DNA of 38,381 nt from a virus. Lineage: Duplodnaviria; Heunggongvirae; Uroviricota; Caudoviricetes. This document shows, in pieces, positions 5,613 to 25,354 of the stretch. The stretch spans positions 1 to 38,381 of IMG/VR virus record IMGVR_UViG_2563366886_000002; one strand, written 5' to 3'. The notes beneath the pieces were generated by a model. It searched no databases. It was not told the origin of the DNA and saw only the letters and a list, made by a program, of their open reading frames with translations. The number at the start of each line of letters is the position of its first letter. Within the stretch, counting starts at the first letter, position 1. The position numbers and the translations under genes are program-made.

Positions 5613-5712
5613 TCACAAACCGCCATTAGCTTATCAGGAAGAGCAGACGACACGATAACAGGGTTGTTGGTGCGGGGGCGGGTCCCCGATGGCGGTCCAT
5701 TATCGGTATTCA

Positions 5713-8012: not shown

Positions 8013-8363
8013 ATGACTCAAAACTATGAACTGATTGTGAAAGGGATCCGCAATTTTGAGAATAAAGTTACGGTAACTTTAGCGTTACGGGACAAAAAAC
8101 GCTTTGACGGTGAAATTTTTGACCTGGACATCTCGCTGGACCGTGTTGAAGGTGCCGCGCTGGAGTTTTATGAGGCAGCAGCCAGAATGAGCATCAGACA
8201 GGTCTTCCTGGATGTTGCTGCCGGGTTATGTGAAGGGGATGAGCAGTCGCCGGAAAAGCGCCCCGTAATTTTAGAGGCGCAGAATGTATGGATAACCTAC
8301 AAAGGAAAGCTACCGGGAAGAATTACTGGTTCTCTGAAGACTCCTCCGGAATCACAACCTTAA
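8013..8363 (+). CDS. hypothetical protein inserted between holin and endolysin (116 aa)
   Basis: ORF MTQNYELIVKGIRNFENKVTVTLALRDKKRFDGEIFDLDISLDRVEGAALEFYEAAARMSIRQVFLDVAAGLCEGDEQSPEKRPVILEAQNVWITYKG...; starts 5 nt after the holin stop; no family recognised. Confidence 0.5.
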   Translation: MTQNYELIVKGIRNFENKVTVTLALRDKKRFDGEIFDLDISLDRVEGAALEFYEAAARMSIRQVFLDVAAGLCEGDEQSPEKRPVILEAQNVWITYKGKLPGRITGSLKTPPESQP

Positions 8364-8426
8364 GTCACTGACCGGAACAGATAAACCTGTCCGTGGGCAG
8401 AAACCGATAAATCCTGATAAATATCC

Positions 8427-8960
8427 ATGAACGCAAAAATCAGATACGGCCTGTCGGCTGCCGTTCTGGCACTGATTGCCGTCGGTGCGCCCGCGCCTGA
8501 TATTCTCGACCAGTTTCTGGATGAAAAAGAAGGTAACCACACAACGGCATACCGCGATGGGTCCGGCATCTGGACCATCTGTCGGGGTGCCACGATAGTG
8601 GATGGAAAACCCGTTTTTCCCGGTATGAAACTGTCGAAGGAAAAATGCGACCAGGTCAACGCCATTGAGCGTGATAAGGCGCTGGCATGGGTGGAGCGCA
8701 ATATTAAAGTACTACTGACCGAACCACAAAAAGCGGGTATAGCGTCATTCTGTCCCTATAACATTGGCCCCGGTAAGTGTTTCCCGTCGACGTTTTATAA
8801 GCGGCTGAATGCCGGTGATCGTAAGGGCGCATGCGAGGCGATTCGCTGGTGGATAAAAGATGGTGGGCGCGATTGCCGCATACGTTCAAATAACTGCTAT
8901 GGACAGGTTATTCGTCGTGACCAGGAAAGCGCATTAGCCTGTTGGGGGATAGAGCAGTGA
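8427..8960 (+). CDS. R: endolysin, lysozyme (T4-lysozyme-like fold) with N-terminal SAR-type signal-anchor
   Basis: N-terminal weakly hydrophobic Gly/Ala-rich segment [17 protein letters not shown], then E-x8-D-x5-T catalytic spacing ([20 protein letters not shown]); pairs with the pinholin. Confidence 0.85.
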
Positions 8961-9418
8961 GCAGAGTCGCCGCGATTATTTATGCTTTGGTTATCTGCAT
9001 CATCGTCTGCCTGTCGTGGGCGGTCAATCATTACCGTGATAACGCCATCGCCTACAAAGAACAGCGTGATAAAAAAGTCAGTGAGCTGAAGCAGTCGATC
9101 GCCACCATCGCTGACATGCAGCAGCGTCAGCGTGATGTTGCTGCACTCGATGCAAAGTACTCGAGAGAATTAGCCAATGCGAAAGCTGAAAATGAAACTC
9201 TGCGCGCTGATGTTGCCGCTGGTCGTCGTCGGTTGCACATCAAAGCAGTCTGTCAGTCAGTGCGTGAAGCCACCACCGCCTCCGGCGTGGATAATGCAAC
9301 CAGCCCCCGACTGGCAGACACCGCTGAACGGGATTATTTCACCCTCAGAGAGAGGCTGATCACTATGCAAAAACAACTGGAAGGAACCCAGAAGTATATT
9401 AATGAGCAGTGCAGATAG
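8957..9418 (+). CDS. Rz: Rz-like i-spanin
   Basis: GTG start overlapping the endolysin stop (GTGA); N-terminal TM ([17 protein letters not shown]) then coiled-coil periplasmic domain; contains embedded Rz1. Confidence 0.8.
9177..9359 (+). CDS. Rz1: Rz1-like o-spanin lipoprotein embedded in Rz (+1 frame)
   Basis: [24 protein letters not shown]... lipobox LVVVGC followed by proline-rich PPPPPAW stretch. Confidence 0.8.
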
Positions 9419-9449
9419 AGCTGCCCATATCGATGGGCAACTCATGCAA

Positions 9450-9743
9450 TTATTGTGAGCAATACACACGCGCTTCCAGTGGAGTATAAATGCCTAAAGT
9501 AATAAAACCGAGAAATCCATTTACGAATGTTTGCTGGGTTTCTGTTTTAACAACATTTTCTGCGCCGCCACAAATTTTGGCTGCATCAACAGTTTTCTCC
9601 TGTCCAATTCCCGAAACGAAGAAATGATGGGTGATGGTTTCCTTTGGTGTTACTGCTGTCGGTTTGTTTCCAACAGTAAACGTCTGTTGAGCACATCCTG
9701 TAATAAGCATTGCCAGAGCGGCAGAAAACAACATTTTTTTCAT
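9450..9743 (-). CDS. bor: Bor lipoprotein (serum-resistance protein of lambdoid phages)
   Basis: MKKMLFSAALAMLITGCAQQTFTVGNKPTAVTPKETITHHFFVSGIGQEKTVDAAKICGGAENVVKTETQQTFVNGFLGFITLGIYTPLEARVYCSQ, near-identical to lambda Bor from memory. Confidence 0.9.
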   Translation of the reverse strand: MKKMLFSAALAMLITGCAQQTFTVGNKPTAVTPKETITHHFFVSGIGQEKTVDAAKICGGAENVVKTETQQTFVNGFLGFITLGIYTPLEARVYCSQ

Positions 9744-10126
9744 CTTATTATCCTGCATTGTTAAAAACGGCAGAATCCTATGTGACAACAATTAAACGAT
9801 AGTTAAATGGATTGATGAAAATTAAAACTATATAGGTGGATGCTCAGCCTATCGGAGGTAGTCAGGATTTGAATGTCAGTCTGTTGTCGGCATTCTGGCA
9901 ATGCAATTTGGATAAAGCGGGGATTAAAAAGATAGAGGCGAGCCGGTCAGGTAGAAATGAATCAGGCTCAAAGTGAAGCGGAAAAGGTCTGTGGCACAAG
10001 CTGATGCAGCCATAATTACAGCCTGATGATTTGTGGAATGAAACATGTTGAACCTCCTTAATTGATGTTATTCGAGTGATGAAGGCATTCTGTCCTTCTA
10101 TAGTGTCCAGTAAATCAAACAGGAAA

Positions 10127-10148
10127 CTTGTCCAACGTGTTGGACAAG
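10127..10148. repeat. perfect 10-bp inverted repeat with 2-nt spacer upstream of HNH/terS
   Basis: CTTGTCCAAC gt GTTGGACAAG; no T run after it. Confidence 0.6.
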
Positions 10149-10268
10149 CCTCTCCATTAGTGAGTTGTATTGATCACAACTCTACAAAGAATTCATTACT
10201 GGGTAGATGAAAATAGTTTCACTATGAATGGAGGAGGCTATGTCGGTGGCTTCTTCATTGGAGTACAT

Positions 10269-10619
10269 ATGCCCCCACGAATCCCACGCGCCTGCCGTAA
10301 GCGTGGATGTGCAGGTACAACCACAGACAGTTCTGGTTACTGCGATAAACATCGTGGCGAAGGATGGGTACAGCATCAACGCGGACTGAGCCGCCACCAG
10401 CGTGGCTATGGCTCGAAATGGGATGCCATACGTGCGCGCATACTGAAGCGTGATAATCATCTGTGTCAGAACTGCCTGCGCAATGGGAGAGCCGTTGAAG
10501 CCAGAACTGTGGACCACATCATTCCGAAAGCTCATGGTGGCACGGATGCAGACAGTAACCTGCAGAGTCTGTGCTGGCCCTGTCATAAAGCAAAAACAGC
10601 GCGCGAACGCATCAATTGA
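10269..10619 (+). CDS. HNH endonuclease (packaging-associated), helper prophage
   Basis: MPPRIPRACRKRGCAGTTTDSSGYCDKHRGEG...CQNCLRNGRAVEARTVDHIIPKAHGGTDADSNLQSLCWPCHKAKT; immediately upstream of terS/terL. Confidence 0.8.
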   Translation: MPPRIPRACRKRGCAGTTTDSSGYCDKHRGEGWVQHQRGLSRHQRGYGSKWDAIRARILKRDNHLCQNCLRNGRAVEARTVDHIIPKAHGGTDADSNLQSLCWPCHKAKTARERIN

Positions 10620-10766
10620 TAACAGTTCCCATCTGTAGGGGAGGGGCAGGTCAAATCTCTGCAACCCTGGCTGCTCAGTACCGCCGCCTGACCTTTCCTC
10701 GCATCGCCGCAGGTTCGAAAACTTTTTTTTGGAATGTGATTAAATGATTGATAGGTAAAACCGATT

Positions 10767-11249
10767 ATGTCTGGACCCCCGAAAACCCCGCCACGCCTGC
10801 ATTTGATACGAGGTAACCCCTCAAAGCGGCCAGTTAAAGACTCCAAAAAAACCGCTAAAAAGGATGAAAAAGGTCTCCCTAAAATTCCGCAACATTTAGG
10901 GGCGCAGGGGAAGTACTGGTTCAGGCGAATGGCGGAAGAGCTGAATGCGGAAGGGATCATTTCTCAGCTCGATGCACGTGCGCTCGAGTTACTGGTGGAA
11001 GCCTACACCGAATACCGGCATCACTGCGAAATACTCGATGTTGAGGGTTATACCTACCGCACGGAAACGCAGAATGGCGATGTGCTGATCAAGGCACACC
11101 CGGCTGCTGCGATGAAGGCTGATGCCTGGAAGCGGATTCGGGCGATGCTTGCAGAGTTTGGTATGTCACCGGCAAGCCGGGCGAAAGTAAATACCGCCGG
11201 ACCGGATGATGTTGATCCGCTGGCAGAGCTTTTAAAAGCGAGAGACTGA
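10767..11249 (+). CDS. terminase small subunit (P27 family), helper prophage
   Basis: 160-aa ORF between HNH and terL; stop overlaps terL start; P27-family-like composition. Confidence 0.7.
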   Translation: MSGPPKTPPRLHLIRGNPSKRPVKDSKKTAKKDEKGLPKIPQHLGAQGKYWFRRMAEELNAEGIISQLDARALELLVEAYTEYRHHCEILDVEGYTYRTETQNGDVLIKAHPAAAMKADAWKRIRAMLAEFGMSPASRAKVNTAGPDDVDPLAELLKARD

Positions 11250-12277
11250 TGGCAAAAGTGGCTGACGGGATCCGCTACGCCGAACGTGTTGTTGCAGGAG
11301 AAATTGTTGCTGGCGAATTTGTCCGTCTGGCCTGCCAGCGTTTTCTTGATGATCTGAAGTACGGCGAAGAGCGGGGGATTTATTTCAGTGAACCTCGTGC
11401 ACAGCACATCCTTAATTTCTACAAATTTGTACCCCATGTGAAAGGGGCGCTGGCAGGTCAGCCCATTGAGTTGATGGACTGGCATGTGTTTATCCTCATT
11501 AATATTTTTGGTTTTGTCATTCCGCTGGTGAATGAAGAAACCGGGGAAGTTGTCATGCGCAGCGATGGCAGTGGACGCCCGGTGATGGTGCGCCGGTTCC
11601 GGACAGCATACAACGAAGTTGCCCGTAAAAACGCAAAATCAACCCTGTCATCGGGTATCGGTCTGTATATGACGGGGGCAGATGGTGAAGGCGGGGCTGA
11701 GGTGTATTCAGCCGCAACCACGCGTGACCAGGCCAGAATTGTGTTTGAAGACGCCAAAAATATGGTCAGAAAAGCCCGGTCGACACTCGGGCGGTTGTTT
11801 GATTTCAACAAGCTGGCGATTTACCAGGAGCAGAGCGCATCAAAATTTGAACCGCTTTCCTCGGATGCAAACAACCTGGACGGTCTGAACATCCACTGCG
11901 CCATTATTGATGAGCTGCATGCTCATAAAACCCGTGACGTGTGGGACGTTCTGGAAACGGCAACCGGTGCCCGTCTGCAGTCTCTGTTATTTGGCATCAC
12001 CACGGCTGGCTTTAACAAGGAAGGGATTTGCTACGAGCAGCGCGATTACGCCATTAAGGTATTGCGAGGCTATAACAGCGACGTGGAGGGCGCGGTAAAA
12101 GACGACTCCTACTTTGCGATCATTTACACGCTCGATGAGGGAGATGATCCGTTTGATGAAACGGTCTGGCAGAAAGCGAATCCTGGCCTGGGCATCTGTA
12201 AACGCTGGGATGATCTGCGTCGTCTGGCGAAAAAAGCGAAGGAGCAGGTCTCTGCGCGGGTGAATTTTTTTACCAAG
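11249..12277 (+). CDS. terminase large subunit, N-terminal (ATPase) portion only; interrupted by the inserted element
   Basis: MAKVADGIRYAERVV...KANPGLGICKRWDDLRRLAKKAKEQVSARVNFFTKK aligns by eye with residues 1 to about 330 of the intact terL at 25338..26999; frame then reads through the att junction into int. Confidence 0.8.
12263..12277. repeat. attL core (left junction of inserted element)
   Basis: AATTTTTTTACCAAG; 12/15 identical to AATATTCTTACCAAA at 27508..27522, with a 7-bp identical core TTACCAA; both copies in the terL reading frame. Confidence 0.6.
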
Positions 12278-12406
12278 AAAGTAACATCACGCCGTAACAA
12301 CAGTGCGACCTGTCCTGATTTTTTTAGTAACCAAATGAAAGAAAAAGATTTTTTTCTTGTTCGTCGTTTTTGTTTTTTCTGGAAGGTTCTGGCTGTTTTC
12401 ATCATT

Positions 12407-12429
12407 TGTGTATTGCACTGTGTATTGCA
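12407..12429 (+). repeat. tandem direct repeats (candidate integrase arm-type sites / int promoter), left arm
   Basis: TGTGTATTGCA c TGTGTATTGCA 20 bp upstream of the int ATG; related GTGTATTGC pair at 27419..27439. Confidence 0.5.
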
Positions 12430-12448
12430 AAAACGGGTTATAAATCAC

Positions 12449-13671
12449 ATGGCGCTAAACAAACTGAGCGATAAAAAACTTCGTTCCCTGCTTGGACGCA
12501 GGAGTGAGAGGCAGGAAACCATCGCTGATGGTAACGGGCTTTCGGTACGGGTCAGTAAATACGGATGTGTTAGTTTTGTTTTCTTTTACAGACTGGCGGG
12601 AAGGGAAACCGCGCCCATCTGGCTGACACTTGGAAAATATCCTGATCTGAGTCTCAAATCAGCGAGAGAGATGCGCGATCAGTGTCGAACTTGGCTTGCG
12701 GAGGGCAGAGATCCACGGATTCAGATAAAAATTGAACGGGAAGCCACCTTGCAACCTGTTACCGTTCGTGAGGCACTTGAATACTGGCTTGATAATTATG
12801 CAATGGATAAGCGTAGGGGAGCAGAACATATCAGGCAGTGCTTTGGTAAACATATTTATCCGGTGATTGGTCATGTACCACTTAGTGATTGCTCTATATC
12901 TATGTGGATTAAGTGTTTTGACAAAATAAAAAAAGTAGCACCTGTACAGGCCGGAGCTTTGTTGCGTATATCAAAACAGGCGCTTAAATTTTGTAGGGTA
13001 AGAAAATACGCGATTAGTCATGAAATTGATGATCTTGAGGTCTGTGATGTGGGAAAAAAGTCTGCGCGAAGAAGCAGGGTTTTAACAGATGATGAAATCA
13101 GAGATTTATGGCGAAGTATTAATACTGATTATGACAATCACGAATTATCATATGAAAACCGAATTATTTTACGTTTCCTGGTAGTTTTTGGTTGTCGACT
13201 GTCAGAAGTATTACTGTCGTCCTGGGTAGAGTGGGATTTTGATAAGAAATTATGGCGCGTTCCCGCTGATCATAGCAAAAATGGCAGGGAAATAATCAGA
13301 CCGATTCCTGATGGCATGTTTAACTGGTTAGTTACGTTAAAAAAATAACAGGTAACAAAGAAAATGTGATTGGGTTTGATATGCGTCAGTGTACGGCAAG
13401 CGTAACTATCGGTAAGACATGGAAAAGGATGAAACACTCGGAGAAATGGACGGCGCATGATATGCGAAGAGTGTTTGCCACAAAACTAAGTGATCATGGT
13501 TTTGAACATAATGTGGTTGAACAGTTGCTTGGGCACACATTAGGCGGTGTTGCCGGGGTTTATAACAGAAGCCAGTATATGGACAGAAAAAAAGAAGCTA
13601 TGAACTGGTGGTACGACTATCTGAATAAGCAAATTAGTGGTGACAGTAATGATTCAAATAGTTACGCGTGA
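12449..13671 (+). pseudogene. int: tyrosine integrase (P4-like), reading frame split by a frameshift at an A7 run
   Basis: N part MALNKLSDKKLRSLLGRRSERQETIADGNGLSVRV... ends TAA at 13346..13348; catalytic C part (..WTAHDMRRVFATKLSD..LLGH..VYNRSQY) continues in the -1 frame (13366..13671); A7 run at 13339..13345. Confidence 0.6.
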
Positions 13672-13870
13672 AGAACTTGAAAATGATGAAACAATCGACA
13701 GGATGATTAAGGAAGATGAATGTGCATGGTTAACCGCTCTTGGCAGGAGACACAGATCGTTACTTGAAAAGGAAGGAAAATTTCCACGAAAAATATGTAT
13801 TGGCCCACAAACAAAAGTCTGGCGCTTATCTGAGGTGCTGGAATGGGTAAAAGGTGAATGGAAACCCTGA
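13637..13870 (+). CDS. AlpA-family DNA-binding protein (excisionase/regulator-like)
   Basis: ...ECAWLTALGRRHRSLLEKEGKFPRKICIGPQTKVWRLSEVLEWVKG resembles AlpA helix-turn-helix; start uncertain (several Met). Confidence 0.55.
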   Translation: MVTVMIQIVTREELENDETIDRMIKEDECAWLTALGRRHRSLLEKEGKFPRKICIGPQTKVWRLSEVLEWVKGEWKP

Positions 13871-13895
13871 GCTAAATTAAATGAGATATAATCAA

Positions 13896-13918
13896 CCCGT
13901 CTTTTGGCGGGTTTTTTT
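13896..13918 (+). terminator. rho-independent terminator
   Basis: CCCGTC-TTTT-GGCGGG hairpin plus T7. Confidence 0.6.
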
Positions 13919-13933
13919 ATAGGTGATATTTTT

Positions 13934-14212
13934 ATGCAAAAATTTATTTATCCTACACCCGAAGAACGCATTCAGATTCTGAAAGATCATGGCGAACCGT
14001 ATGATCGCCGTATACGCGAACATGAGTGTGCCAATCGTACCGGGCTTTCAAGAAGCAGACGTTGGGTACTTGAACAGGAGGGAGCATTTCCTGCTCGTGC
14101 TCATTTAGGGAAAGTGTCTGTTTCCTGGTTGCTCTCTGATGTGCTCTGGTGGGTTATGCATCCGCCAGGAGTAAAGGAAGTAAACAGCCCATACAAAAAC
14201 GCCAATAAGTAA
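13934..14212 (+). CDS. second AlpA-like DNA-binding protein
   Basis: AGGTGA RBS; MQKFIYPTPEERIQILKDHGEPYDRRIREHECANRTGLSRSRRWVLEQEGAFPARAHLGKVSVSWLLSDVLWWV. Confidence 0.55.
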   Translation: MQKFIYPTPEERIQILKDHGEPYDRRIREHECANRTGLSRSRRWVLEQEGAFPARAHLGKVSVSWLLSDVLWWVMHPPGVKEVNSPYKNANK

Positions 14213-14233
14213 TTACCGACAACCCCGCACCAC

Positions 14234-14261
14234 GCAATGCGGGGTTTTTTGTATGTGAGGT
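14234..14261 (+). terminator. rho-independent terminator
   Basis: CCCCGCA-CCACGCAA-TGCGGGG plus TTTTTT. Confidence 0.7.
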
Positions 14262-14269
14262 AAAAAGCA

Positions 14270-14848
14270 ATGAATAAAAATATTGCCGTGACGGGCAAGG
14301 GTGACGCACGTCATGTGAAAAAATTCTGTGATATTCGTGATCTGGTCGTTCTGCGCTTTGATGGCGTGGATGTTCGTGTGGTGTATCTAAACGGCGATCC
14401 GTGGTTTGTTGCAAAGGATGTTTGTGCTGCGCTGGAACTGACCAATTCGCGTACGGCGTTGCAGATGCTTGATGATGACGAAAAGGGAGTAAATTTAACT
14501 TACACCCCCGGAGGAAATCAGAATATGAGCATTATCTCCGAATCAGGTTTCTACAAACTAATAGCCCGCAGCCGCAAAGCAACGACGCCTGGCACATTTG
14601 CTCATCGTTTCAGTAACTGGGTATTCAGAAATGTGATACCGGGTATCAGAAAAACGGGGGCTTATGGTATCCCGTGGGGCGCATTACAGGATTTTTCCCG
14701 CCGCAAAGAGCAATACCAGATAAGTGCCAGTGAGAAGGGGAGGGAGCTACAGGCATGTAAGCGCAAAAAGCGTGAGCTGGAGGAAGAAGAAAAAAGGCTG
14801 ATACGTGAATACCAGCCTGAGTTTTACTTTGGTGAGCGTATTCAGTAA
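14270..14848 (+). CDS. Bro-N domain protein (antirepressor-like)
   Basis: N-terminal VRVVYLNGDPWFVAKDVCAALELTNSRTALQMLDDDEKG typical of Bro-N/AntA N-terminal domains; charged coiled-coil C-terminus. Confidence 0.6.
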   Translation: MNKNIAVTGKGDARHVKKFCDIRDLVVLRFDGVDVRVVYLNGDPWFVAKDVCAALELTNSRTALQMLDDDEKGVNLTYTPGGNQNMSIISESGFYKLIARSRKATTPGTFAHRFSNWVFRNVIPGIRKTGAYGIPWGALQDFSRRKEQYQISASEKGRELQACKRKKRELEEEEKRLIREYQPEFYFGERIQ

Positions 14849-15126
14849 CCACACGCGGTGTTGATTATACGGTACATCGTGTTGACCGGGAAGCTACCCA
14901 CCAGCAAGGCAAAATCTTCTGCTAAAAAATGACATATGACCAGTCGTCCGGAAAGCATGAAATTTTACAAAAATGGAAAATGAAGATTTTTATTGTGCTG
15001 GTGGGTAAAAACAAAAAGCGCCCCGTTGCCGGAGCGCCCTTGCGAACAATTAACCTACTGCGCAAAAAATGAATATAAGCTGTGGAATTATATCAGACAG
15101 GTGACGAAGCGCCACTATTGCCGGAT

Positions 15127-15162
15127 AACAGGCAAAACAAAGGCGACCGCAAAAGGGTCGCC
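15127..15162 (-). terminator. rho-independent terminator for the leftward regulator operon
   Basis: GGCGACC-GCAAAAG-GGTCGCC perfect 7-bp stem; T-rich on the reverse strand (TTGTTTTGCCTGTT). Confidence 0.6.
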
Positions 15163-15228
15163 AGTGGGAACAAGGGAAAACAAAAGCATCACCAACAATG
15201 CCACATTTGCGGCTGGTGGGCAATGTGA

Positions 15229-15417
15229 TCAGTCAGATTTGGTTCGTTCCAAGGTTTGCAACGAGAGCTTTTTCCTGCGCTCTTTAAGGAATTTCTCAAG
15301 AGCAAACGAACAAGGTGCGAATCTTTCTGATTCATGCTCTATCTTTCTGCGCCGTCTTTTCCGTGTCGGTGATAATGTTTTGGTCAATTCTTTATCGGTC
15401 ATTGTGTTGTCCTGCAT
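15229..15417 (-). CDS. small basic hypothetical protein (62 aa)
   Basis: Reverse-strand ORF MQDNTMTDKELTKTLSPTRKRRRRKIEHESERFAPCSF...; downstream of the repressor-like gene, upstream of the reverse terminator. Confidence 0.35.
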   Translation of the reverse strand: MQDNTMTDKELTKTLSPTRKRRRRKIEHESERFAPCSFALEKFLKERRKKLSLQTLERTKSD

Positions 15418-15459
15418 AGCAATGCGCCGTAGTTACTCACACCACGGCGCTGATAGTGA

Positions 15460-15657
15460 TTATTCTGATTCTTTGGCCTTCCGGCGCTGTTCATATTTTA
15501 ATTTGCGTCCACAGGCATCTAAGACCCATGCGGAAAAATTAGCACTAGGATTAGTTAATTTTTCTTGTTCAACGCTGGCATCAATCCCATCTATAAGCTC
15601 ATGTGGGAATCGAATATTTTTCTTTGCTGATTTGTTGTTTGTGTTACCGCTAGACAT
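15460..15657 (-). CDS. small putative DNA-binding protein; candidate element repressor
   Basis: 65-aa reverse-strand ORF MSSGNTNNKSAKKNIRFPHELIDGIDASVEQEKLTNPSANFSAWVLDACGRKLKYEQRRKAKESE; divergent from, and adjacent to, the palindromic operator-promoter. Confidence 0.4.
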   Translation of the reverse strand: MSSGNTNNKSAKKNIRFPHELIDGIDASVEQEKLTNPSANFSAWVLDACGRKLKYEQRRKAKESE

Positions 15658-15725
15658 TGATGCACCTCACTTAAATGGACTTTATGGGCGCACACAATAC
15701 AGCAAAAAAAATGAGATGTTAAGTA

Positions 15726-15764
15726 TTGACATGTGCGCACACATGATTTTAATCTGTGCGCACA
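15726..15764 (+). promoter_or_regulatory. rightward early promoter of the element overlapped by two palindromic operators
   Basis: TTGACA (15726..15731) and TTTAAT -10 candidates; two perfect 10-bp palindromes TGTGCGCACA at 15732..15741 and 15755..15764, 23 bp centre to centre; degenerate third copy GCGCACACA at 15689..15696. Confidence 0.6.
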
Positions 15765-15862
15765 GTTTGAGTTTTGTCACTCAAATTAAGCAACGCCCCG
15801 CAGTGCTCGCAACACATGCAGGGCGTCTAACCACCAACGATAGCAAGAGTATCGAGGTAGCT

Positions 15863-16066
15863 ATGAGAAATCATACCACACACCCGCAAGGGCGGGACTC
15901 GCACAACCTGAATAAATATATCTGGCGTTTTATCGCCCTGAGCACGGCACAACCGCGCGTGATTACCATTGAGGCCACCAGCGAACAGGAAGCACGCCAG
16001 CAATCCCCGGCTGGCTGCGTGATGGTATTCGCCGCCCGTATTCGTCAGGGGGTACACCATGATTAA
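15863..16066 (+). CDS. hypothetical protein (67 aa), first gene of the rightward operon
   Basis: MRNHTTHPQGRDSHNLNKYIWRFIALSTAQPRVITIEATSEQEARQQSPAGCVMVFAARIRQGVHHD; stop overlaps next start. Confidence 0.45.
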   Translation: MRNHTTHPQGRDSHNLNKYIWRFIALSTAQPRVITIEATSEQEARQQSPAGCVMVFAARIRQGVHHD

Positions 16067-16271
16067 CCTGTCACTTACCGACCTTAACCGCATCCAGTTT
16101 CGTGAGAAATTCACCGGGCAGTTGCTAGTCAATGTGGATAAAGGTCGCGTGGTGAGTAATTACCACCTGCCAGATGAAGCAATTGTCGCAACAAGGGAAT
16201 CATTACAGGAACTCGCAGAGCGTGTCGGAATGATTAACGCGAATATTCAGGGGGGGGTGAGCCATGCATGA
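16059..16271 (+). CDS. hypothetical protein (70 aa)
   Basis: Start-coupled ORF MINLSLTDLNRIQFREKFTGQLLVNVDKGRVVSNYHLPDEAIVATRESLQELAERVG. Confidence 0.45.
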   Translation: MINLSLTDLNRIQFREKFTGQLLVNVDKGRVVSNYHLPDEAIVATRESLQELAERVGMINANIQGGVSHA

Positions 16272-16497
16272 TATTTACAATGACACAGTAGATCATGCAT
16301 ACAGCGCACTTGCTTACAGTGAAAACATGCTTGAAATATTGCGCTTATGGCTTGAAACGCTTGGCGATAATGAAAGAGATAAACGCAACAGCAATATTGC
16401 AACAGCATTAATAACGCTTCTTGAGCCTGTAATAAATGAACTGCAAGAAATAGACATCTTGCACGACAGATATAAAGAGCAACACACCGGGAAATAA
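16264..16497 (+). CDS. hypothetical protein (77 aa)
   Basis: Start-coupled ORF MHDIYNDTVDHAYSALAYSENMLEILRLWLETLGDNERDKRNSNIATALITLLEPVINELQE. Confidence 0.45.
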   Translation: MHDIYNDTVDHAYSALAYSENMLEILRLWLETLGDNERDKRNSNIATALITLLEPVINELQEIDILHDRYKEQHTGK

Positions 16498-16502
16498 AAA
16501 CC

Positions 16503-16802
16503 ATGAAACAGAAAATTTCTGGCTTTACTGCCAGCGGCCCCGCTCGGCCTGAAATCCGCCCCGGCGATATTTTCCGGGATAACTACGGCGGCACGGTAAC
16601 GATTAAAAGCGTGGCGGGACGGTGCGTTACTTACCGCCGTGATGGGTACGGCTATGACTGCGTGATGCCTGTTTATCAGTTCCGGCGTGATTTTTCTCTG
16701 GTACAGAACGCAACACGCGGTAAGCCCACCAGCAGGGAAAAAGCACGGGAAAATATTAAGAAAATAAAAAGCATGCTCAGCGCATCCAGAGGTAAAAAAT
16801 GA
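16503..16802 (+). CDS. hypothetical protein (99 aa)
   Basis: MKQKISGFTASGPARPEIRPGDIFRDNYGGTVTIKSVAGRCVTYRRDGYGYDCVMPVYQFRRDF...; stop overlaps the rep start (ATGA). Confidence 0.45.
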   Translation: MKQKISGFTASGPARPEIRPGDIFRDNYGGTVTIKSVAGRCVTYRRDGYGYDCVMPVYQFRRDFSLVQNATRGKPTSREKARENIKKIKSMLSASRGKK

Positions 16803-18919
16803 AACTGGCACCGAACGTAAAACTGTTACCGAAAGATAAAGGCGAGGATGCAGTGATTTTTGCGGGGGATGACGCATACAGCCACGCAGAGCATTACATG
16901 CAGGGCGGAGAAGCCAGAAAGCGCGGCGACAAAATACCACCTGTTTATCTCGGGCGGCGTGACCTGGGTAATCTGGAAAACCTGCGTATTGTGGATGATG
17001 GACGGTTACGCGCCATGGTCAGACGTGCCGGAAAGCTGGATGACAGACAGGCGTTACAGATTGAAACCCTGCTGGCAGTGGCTGGTGTTAAGGAAGCCAG
17101 TTTTTGTGACGAGAACGGTGAACTACTGGAGGACTGGACACCGCAGCTTGCCCGGCTGAAAGACGAATACGAGCGCGGGGAAAGTCTGGTGTTGCCCTTA
17201 AAGAAAAAAATCACAGAAAGCCAGGGCGATGATGAATTAAAGCCCCGCGTTGAAAGTCGCGCCGATGGTGTTTTCTGGGTAACGCCCAAAGTTGACAAGC
17301 AGTCAGGCGAAATTATCCGGCCTGAGACGTGGTTATGTTCCCCGCTTGAACTACTGGGAACGGGGACAATCGGCAAAGAGCATTACCGCGTGATGCGCTG
17401 GAAGAAACCCGCAAACCATGAAGTCATCACAATGGCGGTTCCGTGCGGGGGCATTGGCGACCGTGACGGCTGGCGGTTGCTGAAAGACCACGGCCTTAAC
17501 GTAACAACTAACGGCAAATACAGGGCTATCCTGGCTGACTGGATGCAGTTAAGCGGAAACCATGAGGAATGGCAGTTAAGCACAACAACGGGCTGGCATT
17601 TTGGTGCGTACATCATGCCGGACGGTTCAGTCATTGGTGAGTCTGAAAAACCGATCCTGTTTACCGGAAAAACGGCTGCCGTTAATGGCTATTCTGTGGC
17701 AGGAACGGCGGAGGGCTGGCGCGATACCGTTGCGCGGCTGGCTGGTGGTAATCCGTCCATGATGCTGGGTGTGGCGGTATCGTTATCCGCACCATTAATC
17801 GGGCTGGTGGGTGCTGACGGCTTCGGGGTACATCTTTTCGAACAGTCATCGGCAGGGAAAACCACCACACAGAACATCGCATCCAGTTTATGGGGAGAGC
17901 CGGACGCGCAACGGCTGACCTGGTACGGTACAGCGTTAGGCATCGCCAACGAGGCAGAGGCGCACAATGACGGGCTATTACCCCTGGATGAAATAGGTCA
18001 GGCCGGAAACGCGCGGGAAGTGTCCACGTCGGCTTATACGCTGTTTAACGGTTCGGGGAAATTACAGGGGGCGAAGGACGGCGGCAACAGGGAGATCAAA
18101 CACTGGCGCACGGTGGCAATCAGCACCGGAGAAATGGACGTTGAGACATTCCTCAAAACGGAGGGGATAAAAGTCAAGGCGGGGCAGCTTGTCCGCCTGC
18201 TTAACGTGCCAATGGAAAAAGCCACGCAGTTTCACGAATACAGCACCGGAAAGGCACACGCAGACGCGTTAAAGGATGCCTGGACAGAAAATCACGGGGC
18301 GGCGGGGCGTGAATGGGTTAAATGGCTGGCAGACCACCAGCAGGAGGCAAAGGATACGGTAAGGGCATGCCGTGAACGGTGGCGCAACCTGATACCGGAG
18401 AGTTACGGCGAACAGGTTCACCGTGTGGGGGAACGATTCGCCATGCTGGAGTCGGCGCTGGTGCTTTCCGTCCATATTACTGGTTGGGATGTTCAGGCGT
18501 GCCGCGATGCCATTCAGCATAATTTTAATGCCTGGGTGAAGGAGTTCGGCACGGGTAACAGGGAGTTTAAACAGATGGTTGAACAGGCAGAGGCTTTTTT
18601 AGCGTCGTTCGGATTCAGCAGATACCTTCCGTGGCCCAACACCGACGAGCGTGATTTACCGATTAAAGAGCTTGCCGGATACAGAAAGGGGAGTATCAGA
18701 AACGAAGATGACGAGTTCCGTTTTTACACGTTCCCGCATGTATTTGAGGGTGAGATAGCACAGGGATTTAATCCGTCTCACTTTGCCCGCGCGTTGAGTG
18801 CTGCCGGAATGCTGGAAGCGGGTAACGATCGCCGTTACAAGAAAAAGGCGCTCGGCAAAATTGGGGGGAAGCAGCATGTTTTTTACGTGCTGATGTTCCA
18901 GCCTGAGGCAGAAGATTAA
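16799..18919 (+). CDS. replication protein, DUF927-type P-loop NTPase (primase/helicase-like) of the element
   Basis: 706-aa ORF with Walker A GxxxxGKT (SSAGKTTTQN); followed immediately by an iteron cluster; architecture typical of satellite/PICI replication genes. Confidence 0.6.
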   Translation: MKLAPNVKLLPKDKGEDAVIFAGDDAYSHAEHYMQGGEARKRGDKIPPVYLGRRDLGNLENLRIVDDGRLRAMVRRAGKLDDRQALQIETLLAVAGVKEASFCDENGELLEDWTPQLARLKDEYERGESLVLPLKKKITESQGDDELKPRVESRADGVFWVTPKVDKQSGEIIRPETWLCSPLELLGTGTIGKEHYRVMRWKKPANHEVITMAVPCGGIGDRDGWRLLKDHGLNVTTNGKYRAILADWMQLSGNHEEWQLSTTTGWHFGAYIMPDGSVIGESEKPILFTGKTAAVNGYSVAGTAEGWRDTVARLAGGNPSMMLGVAVSLSAPLIGLVGADGFGVHLFEQSSAGKTTTQNIASSLWGEPDAQRLTWYGTALGIANEAEAHNDGLLPLDEIGQAGNAREVSTSAYTLFNGSGKLQGAKDGGNREIKHWRTVAISTGEMDVETFLKTEGIKVKAGQLVRLLNVPMEKATQFHEYSTGKAHADALKDAWTENHGAAGREWVKWLADHQQEAKDTVRACRERWRNLIPESYGEQVHRVGERFAMLESALVLSVHITGWDVQACRDAIQHNFNAWVKEFGTGNREFKQMVEQAEAFLASFGFSRYLPWPNTDERDLPIKELAGYRKGSIRNEDDEFRFYTFPHVFEGEIAQGFNPSHFARALSAAGMLEAGNDRRYKKKALGKIGGKQHVFYVLMFQPEAED

Positions 18920-18941
18920 CCCCCTGTGTGAGGTGAAAAGT

Positions 18942-19066
18942 TGCGGGTTATGCGGGTTATCCTGTGTATAAGTGCATTAACTGTATGAATAAAAAGGAAA
19001 TCAGTAACCCGCACGTAACCCGCAAAACGGCAGTTATAACCCGCAAAAGTGCGATTATAACCCGCA
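18942..19066. repeat. iteron cluster (candidate origin of replication of the element)
   Basis: 9-mer TGCGGGTTA twice in tandem (18942..18959), AT-rich spacer, then inverted copies TAACCCGCA at 19005, 19016, 19037, 19058. Confidence 0.65.
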
Positions 19067-19129
19067 GAATTTCACCGTAAGGGTGTAAACAAGCGTAACA
19101 ATCAACGTTAAAACCGGAGAACAGACAGC

Positions 19130-19555
19130 ATGACAGCACAGATAGCGGCTTACGGGCGGCTGGTGGCTGACCCGCAGTTAAAGACCACCAGCAAGGGGAC
19201 ACAAATGGCTATGGCGAGTATGGCGGTTCCCCTGCCGTGCAGCCAGGCAGATGACGGAACGGCGACGATGTGGTTATCCGTCCTGGCGTTTGGCAGACAG
19301 GCCGATGCACTGGCAAAACACCAGAAAGGCGAACTGGTGAGTGTGGCGGGTAACATGCAGGTAAGCCAGTGGACAGGCCAGAACGGCGAAATGCGGCAGG
19401 GCTGGCAGGTCATCGCAGACAGCGTAATCAGTGCGCGAACGGCGCGACCGGGCGGCAAAAAAGGCCAGCAGGGCCAGGCTACTGACGCACTGAACAGGGC
19501 AAAACAACAGACAGGCCAGCACGATGATCCGTACGGGGACGGGATACCGTTTTAA
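19130..19555 (+). CDS. ssb: single-stranded DNA-binding protein
   Basis: OB-fold-like N-terminus (IAAYGRLVADPQLKTTSKGTQMAMASMAV), Gly/Gln-rich linker, acidic tail ending DDPYGDGIPF (SSB-type DIPF tail); GGAGAA RBS. Confidence 0.7.
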   Translation: MTAQIAAYGRLVADPQLKTTSKGTQMAMASMAVPLPCSQADDGTATMWLSVLAFGRQADALAKHQKGELVSVAGNMQVSQWTGQNGEMRQGWQVIADSVISARTARPGGKKGQQGQATDALNRAKQQTGQHDDPYGDGIPF

Positions 19556-19570
19556 GCAGTGAGGTACAGC

Positions 19571-19867
19571 ATGATTAAAGACAGCAAAGCGGAAGAACTG
19601 GAGGCTAAAGGGCTGTACCGGAGAGCGGCGGCACGTTGGGCTGATGTTATGTGGCTGGTGAGCACTGACAAGGAGCGCGAACAGGTGGCAAAGCGTCGCG
19701 CGGAATGTATCCGTAAGGCAGCGCGCCAACCAGTCATACCGGATAATTTCGGAATACTGAAAGAGGCCATAAACCGCACACATACCGGGATGGGCTTACA
19801 GAAACCTGGCGGTGAGATGTTCAGGAACTACCCGAAAAAAAAGGGGATAATTGATAACGGTTGTTAA
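19571..19867 (+). CDS. PerC-family transcriptional regulator-like protein
   Basis: MIKDSKAEELEAKGLYRRAAARWADVMWLVSTDKEREQVAKRRAECIRKA resembles PerC/Pch proteins as recalled; GAGG RBS. Confidence 0.45.
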   Translation: MIKDSKAEELEAKGLYRRAAARWADVMWLVSTDKEREQVAKRRAECIRKAARQPVIPDNFGILKEAINRTHTGMGLQKPGGEMFRNYPKKKGIIDNGC

Positions 19868-19899
19868 CTGTTTCTGGTATCGTGGTAGCAGGAGGAAAC

Positions 19900-20148: not shown

Positions 20149-20157
20149 AATGATAAA

Positions 20158-20185
20158 GGCCTGGTAAAATCCAGGCCATTTTTTT
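20158..20185. terminator. terminator hairpin between convergent genes
   Basis: GGCCTGG-TAAAAT-CCAGGCC followed by ATTTTTTT on the plus strand. Confidence 0.65.
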
Positions 20186-20976: not shown

Positions 20977-22146
20977 ATGAAGAAATTAATCGAACTCCGC
21001 CAGCAAAAAACCGCCCTGAAAAACCAGATGCGATCCCTGCTGGAAAAAGCCGACAGTGAAAACCGCAGCCTGAACGATGACGAGGGCAAACAGTTTGATG
21101 AACTGCGTGCAAAAGCCGATTCCCTCGACACAGAAATTTCCCGCCTCGAGTCTGTGGCTGATGAAGAACGCAGCAAGCCAGGAACGGGCATCCAGAAATT
21201 ATCATCTGATGAATTGCGTAACTACATCGTAACCGGAGATGTGCGATCACTGACCACCAGCACTGACAGCGGCAGGGATGGCGGATATACCGTAATTCCT
21301 GAGCTTGATCGCGAAGTCATGCGCCAGCTACAGGATGACAGTGTTATGCGCGTGATCGCGACCGTGAAGACCGCAAAATCAAATGAGTTTCAGAAACTGG
21401 TTTCCACTGGCGGCGCAACTGTAGGACGAGGCACAGAAGGCAGCGCACGTAGTGAAACCAACACCCCGAAAATTGAACGTGTAACCATCAAGCTGAATCC
21501 GATCTACGCCTACCCGAAAACCACGCAGGAAATCCTGGATTTTTCAGAGGTGGATATTCTGGGCTGGTTATCCTCCGAAATTGCCGACACGTTCGCCAGC
21601 ACCGAAGAGGATGATTTTGTTAATGGCGACGGTAACGGCAAGCCGAAAGGCTTCATGGCTTACACCCGTGCGGCGACCAGTGACAAAACCCGCGCTTTTG
21701 GCACCATTGAAAAAGTGGTAGCGGCAAGTGGAACCGCCATTACAGCGGACGAACTGATCGACATTCTCTACAAGCTGAAAGCGAAATACCGCAAAAATGC
21801 CGTCTGGGTGATGAACTCGGGCACGGCAGGGACACTACAGAAGCTGAAAAATGAGAATGGCGATTATATCTGGCGCGACAGCCTTAAAGAAGGTGCGCCG
21901 GATATGTTGCTTGGTCGTCCTGTTTTCTGCCTGGAGTCCATGCCGGACATCGGCGCAGGAAAAGCACCGCTAGCGGTTGGCGATTTCAGTCGTGGTTATT
22001 TCATCGTTGATCATGTAACAGGGATTCGCACCCGACCGGACAACATTACTGAACCCGGATTCTACAAGGTCCACACGGATAAATATCTGGGCGGTGGTGT
22101 GGTGGATTCAAACGCCATCAAAATTCTGGAAATGAAAGCTGGCTAG
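20977..22146 (+). CDS. major capsid protein, HK97 fold (element copy)
   Basis: 389-aa ORF with N-terminal coiled-coil delta-domain-like region then capsid-like body; paralogous by eye to the helper capsid at 30232..31449. Confidence 0.75.
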   Translation: MKKLIELRQQKTALKNQMRSLLEKADSENRSLNDDEGKQFDELRAKADSLDTEISRLESVADEERSKPGTGIQKLSSDELRNYIVTGDVRSLTTSTDSGRDGGYTVIPELDREVMRQLQDDSVMRVIATVKTAKSNEFQKLVSTGGATVGRGTEGSARSETNTPKIERVTIKLNPIYAYPKTTQEILDFSEVDILGWLSSEIADTFASTEEDDFVNGDGNGKPKGFMAYTRAATSDKTRAFGTIEKVVAASGTAITADELIDILYKLKAKYRKNAVWVMNSGTAGTLQKLKNENGDYIWRDSLKEGAPDMLLGRPVFCLESMPDIGAGKAPLAVGDFSRGYFIVDHVTGIRTRPDNITEPGFYKVHTDKYLGGGVVDSNAIKILEMKAG

Positions 22147-22200
22147 TCATGAGTAAGGAGGAGGCTGCGGCCTCCTTTTTCAGCTTTATGGAGTACACCG

Positions 22201-22761
22201 ATGAAAAACACCGATTTTGAAATCCGCACATCTGAACTGACCGCCAGCAATAAAAAGCTGGTGGGGTATGCCGTTCGCTGGAACAGCCTTTCAGAAATTA
22301 TCTGGGACGAATTCCGCGAACAGTTCACGCCGGGGGCTTTTGCTGACTATCTGGCGGCGGGTAATGATGTGCGCTGCCTGTATGAGCATGACTATACCCA
22401 ACTGCTGGGGCGCACCAAATCCGGCACTCTGGTACTGACTGGGGACAACACCGGGCTACGTTTTGAACTGACACCGCCTGATACCCAGCTTGGAAAAGAT
22501 GTGCTCACGCTGGTGTCGCGTGGCGACATTACAGGAATGAGCTTTGGCTTTCGCGCATTATGCGAAGAATGGAATATCGCGCAAAAACCGTATTTGCGTA
22601 CCGTAACCGCCGCTGAACTCCGAGAAATCACAATAACGTCGATGCCTGCTTATCCAGAATCTGGCGTGGAGATTGCCCACCGTTCGTTGTTTGCACAGCA
22701 CCCTGAATTACGCCCGGCAGGAAATAATCGTCATCGCTGGGCTGAACTGGCGGGGTTGTGA
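22201..22761 (+). CDS. prohead protease, HK97 family (element copy)
   Basis: 186-aa ORF between capsid and portal; resembles the helper protease at 29618..30217. Confidence 0.7.
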   Translation: MKNTDFEIRTSELTASNKKLVGYAVRWNSLSEIIWDEFREQFTPGAFADYLAAGNDVRCLYEHDYTQLLGRTKSGTLVLTGDNTGLRFELTPPDTQLGKDVLTLVSRGDITGMSFGFRALCEEWNIAQKPYLRTVTAAELREITITSMPAYPESGVEIAHRSLFAQHPELRPAGNNRHRWAELAGL

Positions 22762-22762
22762 T

Positions 22763-23977
22763 ATGTGGTGGCCTTTTAGTCGTAAAAAAAGCGAGCAACG
22801 TAACCTGTCCATTGATGATTTTCTGGCGCTGTCCGGCGTACCGAATACCGGATCCGGAGAATATGTTTCTGCCGGGACGGCTGAATCATTGCCTGCTGTG
22901 ATGAACGCGGTTTCTGTCATCGCTGAGGCGGTGGCCACGATGCCGTGTTATCTGTATCTGGTACGTAATGACAAGGGCAGGGAGGCGCGGGAATGGCTGG
23001 ACAGTCATCCGGTAGATATTCTGCTGAATGAGCAGCCTAATTCGTGCCAGACACCTTACCAGTTTAAACGCACAATGATGCGTCACTGTCTGCTGAACGG
23101 TAACGCCTATGCGGTTATTGAGTGGGGGCAGGACGGGCAGCCAAAATCACTTCATCCTTATGCGCCGGGGTGTGTTGTACCGGAACGCACAGGCGCACAC
23201 AAATACCGCTATACCATCACCGAACCCTGTACAGGAACGGTGCGCACGTATTTACAGGAAGAAGTTCTGCATCTCCGCTATGCCTCGGATGATGGCTTTC
23301 TGGGGCGCTCCCCTGTCACGATTTGCCGTGAGGCGCTGGGGCTTGGCCTTGCTCAACAGCGCCACGGAGCCAGCATTATGAAAGATGGCATGATGGCGGC
23401 AGGGATTATCACGTCAGGCGAATGGCTGGACGGCGTGAAAGGTAAACAGGCATTAGACGCACTGGAACGCTACAAGGGGGCGAAAAATGCCGGAAAAACG
23501 CCAATCCTTGAAGGGGGCATGGATTACAAGCAACTGGGAATGAGTAACCAGGATGCTGAATGGCTGGCCTCCCGTCGCTTCTCCATTGAAGACATTGCCC
23601 GTATGTTCAACGTGTCGCCGATTTTTCTTCAGGAATACAGCAACAGCACCTACAGCAATTTCAGTGAGGCAAGCCGCGCGTTTCTGACTATGACAATGCG
23701 TCCGTGGCTGGCGAACTTCGAACAGCAAATCAAGGCCGCTTTGCTGGTGGCTTCTCCCGTACCTGGTACCCGTTATCTGGTTGAGTTTGATTCAGCCGAT
23801 TTACTGCGCGCCACCCCTACCGAACGTTACGCCACGTATGAGAAAGGGATTAAGAACGGGATCATGAATCCGAACGAAGCCCGTGAGCGTGAGGGAATGC
23901 CGCCGCGTGAAGGTGGCGACGAGTTCAGCCAGGCATGGAAGCAGACTGTGGAAATTAAAGGTGAAAAAGATGAGTGA
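22763..23977 (+). CDS. portal protein, HK97 family (element copy)
   Basis: 404-aa ORF MWWPFSRKKSEQRNLSIDDF...; conserved stretches shared with the helper portal (e.g. FLQEYSNSTYSNFSEASRAFLTMTMRPWLANFEQQ vs FSNITQQAIQFVRYTMMPWVANWEQE). Confidence 0.8.
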   Translation: MWWPFSRKKSEQRNLSIDDFLALSGVPNTGSGEYVSAGTAESLPAVMNAVSVIAEAVATMPCYLYLVRNDKGREAREWLDSHPVDILLNEQPNSCQTPYQFKRTMMRHCLLNGNAYAVIEWGQDGQPKSLHPYAPGCVVPERTGAHKYRYTITEPCTGTVRTYLQEEVLHLRYASDDGFLGRSPVTICREALGLGLAQQRHGASIMKDGMMAAGIITSGEWLDGVKGKQALDALERYKGAKNAGKTPILEGGMDYKQLGMSNQDAEWLASRRFSIEDIARMFNVSPIFLQEYSNSTYSNFSEASRAFLTMTMRPWLANFEQQIKAALLVASPVPGTRYLVEFDSADLLRATPTERYATYEKGIKNGIMNPNEAREREGMPPREGGDEFSQAWKQTVEIKGEKDE

Positions 23978-24269
23978 AGACAAAATTACACCTGATGAAG
24001 TCAGGGCACATCTTCGCCTTGATGACTTTTCCGGAGAAGGCGAACTTCTGAAAATGTATACCGATGCGGCGCTGGAAGCCTGCCAGAAGCATATCGGGAA
24101 ACGTTTTGAAGACGGGCTGGAATTTACCCCGGCAATACGTGTTGGTTGCCTGATGTACATCGCTTTCCTGTACGAGAACAGGGAAGCGGTTTCACCTGTG
24201 GAACAGTCTGAACTGCCTATGGCTATTTCTGCGCTCTGGTCGGTTTATCGTGATGTGGGGGTGTACTGA
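23970..24269 (+). CDS. head-tail connector protein (gp6-like), element copy
   Basis: MSEDKITPDEVRAHLRLDDFSGEGELLKMYTDAALEACQKHIGKRF...; start overlaps portal stop (ATGAGTGA). Confidence 0.6.
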   Translation: MSEDKITPDEVRAHLRLDDFSGEGELLKMYTDAALEACQKHIGKRFEDGLEFTPAIRVGCLMYIAFLYENREAVSPVEQSELPMAISALWSVYRDVGVY

Positions 24270-24709
24270 TGCCGTGGCAACCATTAAGGCGATGCACTGA
24301 GCCGGGCTGTAATAAGCGCGTGAAGTCCGGCAAGTGTGAAGAGCACAGGCGGGCTGCATGGCGTGCAGAGGATGCCAGACGGGGGCACCGCCGCGCGCGT
24401 GGGTATTCCCGGCAGTGGGACAAATACCGCGCCCTGTACCTGAGCAAAAACCCGTTATGCGTGCGTTGTCTGGCTAAGGGGATTTATACGCCAGCTCTTG
24501 TGGTGGATCACATCATTCCCATCAATGGCGGCGGTGATGTTCTCTTCTGGCCTGAGTGGAACCACCAGGCATTGTGCCAGACGTGCCACAACCGTAAGAC
24601 GACACGGGAAGATCCAGCCACGAAAGCGAACCGTAAGGCGGGCATGTATCGCGAGCAGGAAGAACGGGCGGCACATCGTAACGACTGGATGTATGGCGAT
24701 GATGACTGA
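24269..24709 (+). CDS. HNH endonuclease (element copy)
   Basis: CTEPGCNKRVKSGKCEEH ... VVDHIIPINGGGDVLFWPEWNHQALCQTCHNRKT; start overlaps connector stop. Confidence 0.8.
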   Translation: MPWQPLRRCTEPGCNKRVKSGKCEEHRRAAWRAEDARRGHRRARGYSRQWDKYRALYLSKNPLCVRCLAKGIYTPALVVDHIIPINGGGDVLFWPEWNHQALCQTCHNRKTTREDPATKANRKAGMYREQEERAAHRNDWMYGDDD

Positions 24710-24997
24710 ACAGGAGCAAAACAGGCTGATACGTGGACTGATAAGGCAGCGTGACTTATGGAAGACACAGGAGACAGGGCACAAAGTCAACAGGACAGGG
24801 CGCACAGAACGCACCACACCGAAGCGATTAACCGACCGTGACCGCGAGGTCATGGAATGTTTTCGCAATCGCTGGTGAGGCTGTCAGAGGGGGTGGGGGA
24901 GGTTTTCAGGACGAAACCGTCCCTGCCGGACACCGACCGCCTCCTCAAATTTTTGTGCACGGGAATTTTTTTGAAAATAATTGGGCGAAAAAAGAAC

Positions 24998-25354
24998 ATG
25001 GCAAGACCACCAAAAGCCCCCGCTTACCTGGATGAAATCGCGGTCAGGCAGTGGAAGGAAAAATCGCGCCAGCTTTCCGGGCGGGAAGACCTTACCCCCG
25101 CCGACTGGAGCAATCTGGAGCTGTATTGCGTTAACTACTCCATATACCGCAAAGCCGTCGAAGACCTTGCGACGCGCGGATTCAGCATTGTTAACAGTCA
25201 GGGCAGTGAGAGCAGAAACCCCGCCCTGAGCGCAAAGGCTGACGCAGAAAGAATAATGATCAAAATGGCTTCTTTGCTGGGTTTTGACCCGGTAAGCCGC
25301 CGCAGAAATCCACCGGAAACAGAGGAAGAGGACGAGCTTGACCGCCTGGCATGA
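24998..25354 (+). CDS. terminase small subunit (P27 family), element copy
   Basis: MARPPKAPAYLDEIAVRQWKEKSRQLSGREDLTPADWSNLELYCVNYSIYRKAVEDL...; precedes terL; start chosen by analogy to the helper terS. Confidence 0.65.
   Translation: MARPPKAPAYLDEIAVRQWKEKSRQLSGREDLTPADWSNLELYCVNYSIYRKAVEDLATRGFSIVNSQGSESRNPALSAKADAERIMIKMASLLGFDPVSRRRNPPETEEEDELDRLA

Follow-up and report, generated by a model that had tools for sequence, protein, structure and literature searches.

Helper-embedded PICIs (HE-PICIs) are satellites located within a late gene of a prophage. They bring no substitute for the sequence that they displace, and expression of the late gene in which they reside is not possible before excision (PMC10111431). 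A doubled motif, tgTGTATTGCantgTGTATTGCa, is found ~81 bp upstream and ~132 bp downstream of the attP center (Tommasini et al., 2023, PMC10111431). One member of the group, Eco33.15.A_Terminase_1_246 of Escherichia coli 042 (FN554766.1:2250958-2235714), is catalogued with the att identity "ttaccaa" (Tommasini, Mageeney and Williams, 2023, NAR Genom Bioinform, PMC10111431), and its entry in the supplement of that paper carries the annotation "reannotate term_int fusion". Capsid-forming PICIs (cf-PICIs) have EcCIEDL933 as their prototype (Alqurainy et al., bioRxiv 10.1101/2022.09.08.507074), and six chromosomal attB sites have been reported for them. Length changes of mononucleotide runs are known from "savior indels", as in the G7 run of the herpesvirus thymidine kinase gene and in endosymbiont poly(A) tracts that are rescued by polymerase slippage (PMC5009743). 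Furthermore, -1 frameshift sites are present in insertion sequences (A_AAA_AAG in IS911/IS3, A_AAA_AAC in IS1, and A_AAA_AAA clusters), where the two-frame state is conserved and usually accompanied by a stem-loop or a pseudoknot (PMC4066793).

Here, we describe an integrase gene that is split at a run of seven A residues (A7) in the viral record IMGVR_UViG_2563366886_000002, which was analyzed over its entire length of 38,381 bp (referred to as the window). The integrase stands at the head of an island that matches Eco33.15.A_Terminase_1_246 in its 15,245 bp, the TTACCAA core, the terL target codon, the doubled TGTATTGC motifs and the gene order. Over the region int-alpA-bro, the two differ in nothing but the tract, which is A7 in the window instead of A8. 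Further differences are a G8 instead of a G7 run at 16250 and 137 SNPs over the 21.4 kb shared together with the helper. The element, its site, the att core and the doubled motif are therewith already published. In its layout, the island resembles EcCIEDL933, with a size of ~15 kb, int-alpA-replication genes and capsid, protease, portal, connector and hnh-terS-terL genes without tail genes, but it resides in a prophage late gene and not in one of the six chromosomal attB sites. The lesion shares with the "savior indels" a one-base indel of a mononucleotide run and, in silico, the property that the wild-type protein can be regained by slippage within that run, whereas there is no evidence in the window of a selected compensated state or of compensation as such. 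With the insertion sequences it has in common the type of heptamer in a recombinase gene; however, the A7 of the integrase is derived and rare, and it lacks a stimulator. Homopolymer frameshifts of this kind are routine, RefSeq already contains the products of the lesion, and the value of the analysis is mostly corrective: the repaired state is A8 and not A6, the reading as an artefact is made unlikely, and the gene is placed in a catalogued HE-PICI within a prophage terL.

The island and its helper prophage

The host of the island is a lambdoid prophage, and the satellite is inserted site-specifically in its terL gene. The island covers positions 12277-27521 (15,245 bp with one copy of the core; Table 1). 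When the terL flanks are joined at TTACCAA, an in-frame TerL of 585 aa is obtained, and the empty site reconstructed in this way matches uninterrupted terL genes with 100% identity. In ~905 of the 5,426 E. coli genomes, a single place covers at least 80% of the empty-site query and represents an unoccupied site of this family. In all six relatives that were fetched, the nesting is alike, with different lambdoid prophages as hosts, including an Stx1d phage. [quoted passage not shown] Moreover, the zones follow the HE-PICI order int-alpA, Bro-N, primase and late genes, and the late zone has the proteobacterial cf-PICI set of capsid, protease, portal, connector, HNH, TerS and TerL in this order and without tail genes. 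A search for the attP junction in IMG/VR gave no match, which is a weak negative.

Table 1. Coordinates of the features of the helper prophage and the satellite in the window.
Feature	Position	Strand	Remark
Helper TerS (P27 family)	10767..11249	+	Directly upstream of interrupted terL
Helper terL, 5' fragment	11249..12276	+	ATPase domain and start of nuclease domain; in frame into island
attL crossover core TTACCAA	12270..12276	+	
Doubled TGTATTGC motif, copy 1	12408..12428	+	~130 bp downstream of core; diagnostic of HE-PICI attP
Integrase, N-terminal part	12449..13348	+	299 codons and stop; Arm-DNA-bind_3, core-binding region, first catalytic Arg (GCRLSE), Lys (HSKNG)
Integrase, C-terminal part	13324..13671	+	-1 frame; mechanical ORF 13366-13671 from GTG 13366; HDMRR, LLGH, GVYNRS tyrosine
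A7 homopolymer	13339..13345	+	A8 in nearly all relatives; followed by TAA 13346-13348
Two AlpA-family genes	13649-13870, 13934-14212	+	Regulator and putative excisionase
Bro-N domain protein	14270..14848	+	PICI "dynamic zone"
Replication zone	16799..19555	+	DUF927 primase-helicase 16799-18919; SSB 19130-19555
Late zone, cf-PICI-like	20977..26999	+	No tail genes
Late zone: major capsid	20977-22146	+	
Late zone: protease	22201-22761	+	
Late zone: portal	22763-23977	+	
Late zone: adaptor	23970-24269	+	
Late zone: HNH	24269-24709	+	
Late zone: TerS	24998-25354	+	
Late zone: TerL	25338-26999	+	
Doubled TGTATTGC motif, copy 2	27419..27439	+	~80 bp upstream of core
attR crossover core TTACCAA	27515..27521	+	
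Helper terL, 3' fragment	27522..28251	+	Nuclease domain
Satellite attB junction			GAATTTTTTTACCAAACACATGAATG
Satellite attP junction			GAAATATTCTTACCAAGAAAGTAACATC

The island encodes a TerL of its own, which is complete (553 aa). Since it is only 33% identical to the helper fragment, it is unlikely that it substitutes for the TerL of the helper. The possibility that the island terL serves as a replacement 3' end of the helper gene was likewise considered and is ruled out by its completeness, by the low identity and by the separate helper 3' fragment, which follows after attR.

The helper carries two tRNA genes (5537-5787) downstream of the gene for the Q antiterminator (4572-5393), a pair that is typical of the late-region cargo of lambdoid and Stx-type phages. 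As the first one is called tRNA-Met (CAT) by ARAGORN, whereas PGAP calls the homologue in E. coli 042 tRNA-Ile, it is probably an Ile2 tRNA with lysidine. A gene for a lipoprotein of the Bor/Iss family (Lambda_Bor; 9450-9791, minus strand) is located between the lysis genes of the helper and HNH-terS; at the homologous position, strain "10" has a gene annotated as iss (increased serum survival).

Reading frames of the integrase gene

According to the original prediction, the integrase is split at an A7 run, with a TAA stop at 13346-13348 and the C-terminal part in the -1 frame, which is borne out by the sequence and by a check of the open reading frames. Read from the window, the homopolymer comprises exactly positions 13339..13345 of the plus strand. 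The split and its stop codon hold, and the N-terminal part has 299 codons, counted from ATG 12449. The 0-frame codons at the tract are TTA AAA AAA TAA, which gives an A_AAA_AAA heptamer with TAA directly next to it. The catalytic C-terminal part (HDMRR...LLGH...Y) runs in the -1 frame to 13671; this frame is open from 13324, and both frames overlap at 13324-13348. When the tract was replaced in silico, A6 led to a stop after 301 codons and A7 to a stop after 299 codons, and among the three lengths A8 alone gave an uninterrupted integrase of 407 aa. A repair of the gene by A6 is thereby ruled out by translation. The assertion that the loss of one A would make the integrase continuous had the direction of repair backwards, and a test of the tract length should therefore ask for A8 instead of A6.

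The Pfam profile Phage_integrase matches the first piece with its positions 2-80 and the second piece with its positions 112-170. The protein restored by A8 has the full R-K-H-R-H-Y set in the motifs GCRLSE (248), HSKNG (275), HDMRR (337), LLGH (360) and GVYNRS (370), with the catalytic roles of the residues assigned by consensus and not by structure. In contrast, no single polypeptide of the window comprises this set, as H337, R340, H363 and the nucleophile Y372 are encoded in the -1 frame. The product of 299 residues is devoid of these four and keeps the arm-binding and core-binding parts together with the first Arg and the Lys.

A mechanical ORF at 11249-13348 (699 aa) begins as the terL 5' fragment of the prophage (TerL_ATPase, start of TerL_nuclease) and reads in frame into the integrase, a context that the original prediction had overlooked. 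Its residues 406-492 match Arm-DNA-bind_3 (PF13356; E = 4.7e-18), and the arm-type DNA-binding domain is thus present. In between lies a T-run at 12349-12355, which is T7 in the window, in E. coli 042 and in L003, and T6 in L002 and L004-L006. Because this run decides the frame between terL' and int, the "fusion" of 699 or 807 aa is incidental. Furthermore, the int start called by PGAP differs among the genomes, being either 12449 or one of various upstream ATGs. A real terminase-integrase fusion protein is ruled out by the polymorphic run and the varying starts.

State of the tract among related integrases

A megablast search with positions 12440-13680 against 5,426 complete E. coli genomes yielded 36 copies with 98.4-99.9% identity. 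All 36 span 1242 bases compared to the 1241 bases of the query, and a pseudogene flag is set on none of them. The six fetched relatives, including E. coli 042 as the closest one, have A8 throughout. Pattern scans that allowed A6-A10 found 17 copies in IMG/VR (16 with A8, one with A7) and three copies in metagenome contigs, all with A8, and no A9 allele was seen in them. In the searches that did not select for a truncated product, A7 is therewith present in roughly 1 of 56 copies (~2%), a count in which the data sets may overlap. A8 is the normal state of the tract. The scan of genome contigs for the tract gave zero matches, no copy of the locus was matched in the phages collection, and a distant blastn search returned no integrase of intermediate identity that covers the tract. 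A homologue with 66% identity (L046) reads ...CAT AAG TCA ACA AAA AAT... at the homologous position, and the tract is therefore not conserved.

Recurrence of the A7 allele

In an alignment of 46 integrase copies, 17 haplotypes were distinguished, four of which carry A7. One is the window itself, which is otherwise identical to the A8 copies of E. coli 042 and of two IMG/VR contigs. Another one is L010 (SRR070453), which apart from the tract has the sequence of the A8 copy in E. coli UMNF18, and the remaining two, L011 (ERR13355947) and L020/L044 (IMG/VR), are unique haplotypes. Additional 299-aa products ending in "...VTLKK" (P0009) with other C-terminal backgrounds occur in ~10 contigs, compared to roughly 1000 contigs with intact forms. 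In the record of E. coli UMNF18 (L002), frameshift flags are set in the island terL fragment, the DUF927 primase, HNH and TerS as well as in helper genes; as this suggests sequencing errors of the homopolymer type, L010 is a weaker independent case of A7. The tract is thus a hot spot of recurrent slippage, and even when the doubtful cases L010 and L020/L044 are discounted, it has changed repeatedly. Since no homopolymer within the integrase gene is longer than the A8 tract, repeated change is to be expected there. Across all frames of E. coli genes, AAAAAAA is rarer than expected, possibly because it induces indel mutations and transcriptional slippage (Sharma et al., PMC4066793). Other lesions of the integrase gene were seen in other copies.

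The C-terminal part of the integrase contains a second A7 run at 13587-13593, in which L020/L044 are also short of one base, and the product P0023 ends with "...DRKKKL", indicating a shift at this run. The contig of L011 begins at the position that corresponds to 12274 of the window, inside the TTACCAA core. This is where an assembly graph would branch if several junctions were present (attL and attP, or several terL alleles). The contig of L010, unlike that of L011, continues into terL (attL).

Origin and consequence of the lesion

We consider it probable that the window contains a genuine recent A8-to-A7 deletion in the integrase of an HE-PICI, with the satellite trapped or nearly so and the terL of the helper kept split. 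A single base would have been deleted recently from the tract of the tyrosine integrase gene of the embedded satellite, most likely by replication slippage, truncating the integrase after residue 299. The truncated product should be unable to catalyze excision, so that the satellite would be immobilized or nearly immobilized, and as the satellite has no replacement for the interrupted gene, the helper terL would remain split. One slipped base would thus disable two nested mobile elements and should also keep the helper terminase split, so that homopolymer decay in a satellite gene would ground a prophage, too, at little cost. The mutation of the integrase is most likely a null or near-null one. 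A small amount of full-length integrase with the wild-type sequence may still arise, either by -1 ribosomal slippage on A_AAA_AAA ahead of the TAA or by an A that RNA polymerase adds. Immobilization by decay, one of three alternatives in the original prediction, is the best supported of them, given the loss of H-x-x-R, the second His and the Tyr and the presence of A8 in ~98% of the copies; the loss of excision as such is what we infer. Since zero substitutions separate the window from its A8 twin in E. coli 042 over the 2.4 kb of int-alpA-bro, the event is a very recent one that allows no statement on selection. For the same reason, no secondary decay is visible that would prove a lasting loss of integrase function.

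A strain that truly has A8, with one A dropped from the consensus, would give the same sequence. The length of homopolymers is a classic error of several platforms, A8 is overwhelmingly the state elsewhere, the window does not differ from an A8 copy over int-bro except in the tract, and two other A7 copies show features that suggest error-prone data. However, three separately made assemblies give A7: an exact look-up of the 699-aa product led to the NCBI draft assembly GCA_000352925.1, the scaffold KB733178.1 of which is 100% identical to positions 8249-16348 and probably is the source of the window, and two independent read-level assemblies from Logan, of the runs SRR647296 and SRR633911 and each with 100% identity over 7 kb, contain the same A7 product. 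The product (RefSeq WP_001612880.1) has two GenBank protein accessions, ELH40907.1 and ELI33372.1. Moreover, the comparison with E. coli 042 (99.35% identity over 21.4 kb) revealed only three single-base indels, one of them intergenic, one in the int tract and one in the G7/G8 run; all other runs of 7-8 nt agree in this stretch, and the window does not look like an indel-noisy assembly. The KB-/ELH-series assembly presumably belongs to an Illumina-sequenced collection, and with Illumina a consensus error at an 8-mer is rare. A sequencing or assembly error, which had also been proposed, is for these reasons unlikely in the window, and the genuine deletion is preferred.

It is rather unlikely that the tract is a functional slippage site, either as a reversible heritable ON/OFF switch between A7 and A8 or with a leaky A7 that provides a low, tuned dose of integrase and thereby delays the excision of the satellite and the repair of the helper terL. 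The perfect A_AAA_AAA heptamer stands before the stop codon, and in silico a -1 shift or an extra A inserted by RNA polymerase restores the exact wild-type protein, with the sequence ...L K K I T G N K E N V I G F.... Heptamers without a stimulator shift at 2-10 times the background of ~0.05% (PMC4066793), single-base deletions are suppressed without programming at ~1-10% in some contexts in E. coli (PMC10861913), and for a compensated "savior indel" there is a precedent in the G7 run of herpesvirus TK (PMC5009743). With these values, a trickle of active integrase would be plausible. In contrast, a stable downstream RNA structure that could stimulate frameshifting was not found in 13349-13430: these 82 nt fold with an MFE of -8.8 kcal/mol (z = +1.27), and 184 of 200 shuffled sequences fold at least as well. 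A stimulator similar to a Shine-Dalgarno (SD) sequence is not visible upstream of the tract in the window either. Of the features of a programmed -1 site, the window has the 0-frame heptamer with a meaningful -1 product, but it has no stimulatory element, and the relatives have a single A8 ORF instead of the two-frame arrangement. Of those of a phase-variable locus, it has the recurrent length changes, with A7 on four haplotypes, some of which may be sequencing artefacts, but the two states are not both common and the tract is absent from L046. Furthermore, A7 alleles are always tips beside identical or nearly identical A8 copies, no A9 was found, and the other null lesions in the gene are as random decay would give. 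From the "slippage-prone switch" of the original prediction the recurrent slippage site remains, whereas the rarity of A7 and the missing tract, stimulator and A9 speak against a switch, and there is no sign of a programmed or designed one. Still more doubtful is a reversible heritable gate, in which A7 would silence the nested lysogen as a virus and a rare reversion from A7 to A8, or -1 slippage of a few per cent, would re-arm both elements; if true, it would be a phase-variable lock on prophage productivity, worked from within the satellite. Finally, the two pieces could act as a split protein, or the fragment of 299 aa could have a role of its own, e.g., as a dominant-negative binder of the att sites that stabilizes the nested lysogen. 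The N-terminal fragment keeps Arm-DNA-bind_3, both ends of the island have intact doubled arm-type motifs, and the ORF of the C-terminal fragment has candidate GTG and ATG starts. However, no convincing ribosome-binding site precedes 13366, 13381 or 13429, and the break is inside the catalytic domain, with the Pfam profile positions 80 to 112 lost or bridged. The rarity and the very young age of the A7 allele give no indication that the split form is selected, and a function of the pieces is highly improbable compared to the genuine deletion with a trapped satellite.

Annotation of the locus

The products of the lesion are found in RefSeq under misleading names, and the case flags an annotation hazard. 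WP_001612880.1, the read-through from terL' into int, bears the name "terminase large subunit" in the database, and the orphan C-terminal fragment of the integrase that of "tyrosine-type recombinase". The tail of the PHROG TerL profile phrog_9 (positions 690-811 of 812) matches residues 275-406 of the integrase, and the match of phrog_24775 (101 aa, "unknown function") coincides exactly with the orphan C-terminal fragment. These profile libraries seem to have been contaminated by calls in which the locus is split or fused.

A second length-variable homopolymer of the island is the G-run at 16250-16257. It is G8 in the window, its source assemblies L007-L009 and L023, G7 in E. coli 042 and L017, and G5 in L021. 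The 3' end of a small ORF (16059-16271) directly ahead of the next gene contains the run, the length of which alters the last residues of this ORF. Moreover, E. coli GF31 (L005, 16943-24355) harbors an "abandoned" HE-PICI stub, which consists of the terL 5' fragment, an intact A8 int, two alpA genes and bro, and which is joined by a deletion to a tail-fiber fragment and the chromosomal potB; the integrase ORF of this stub is still intact.
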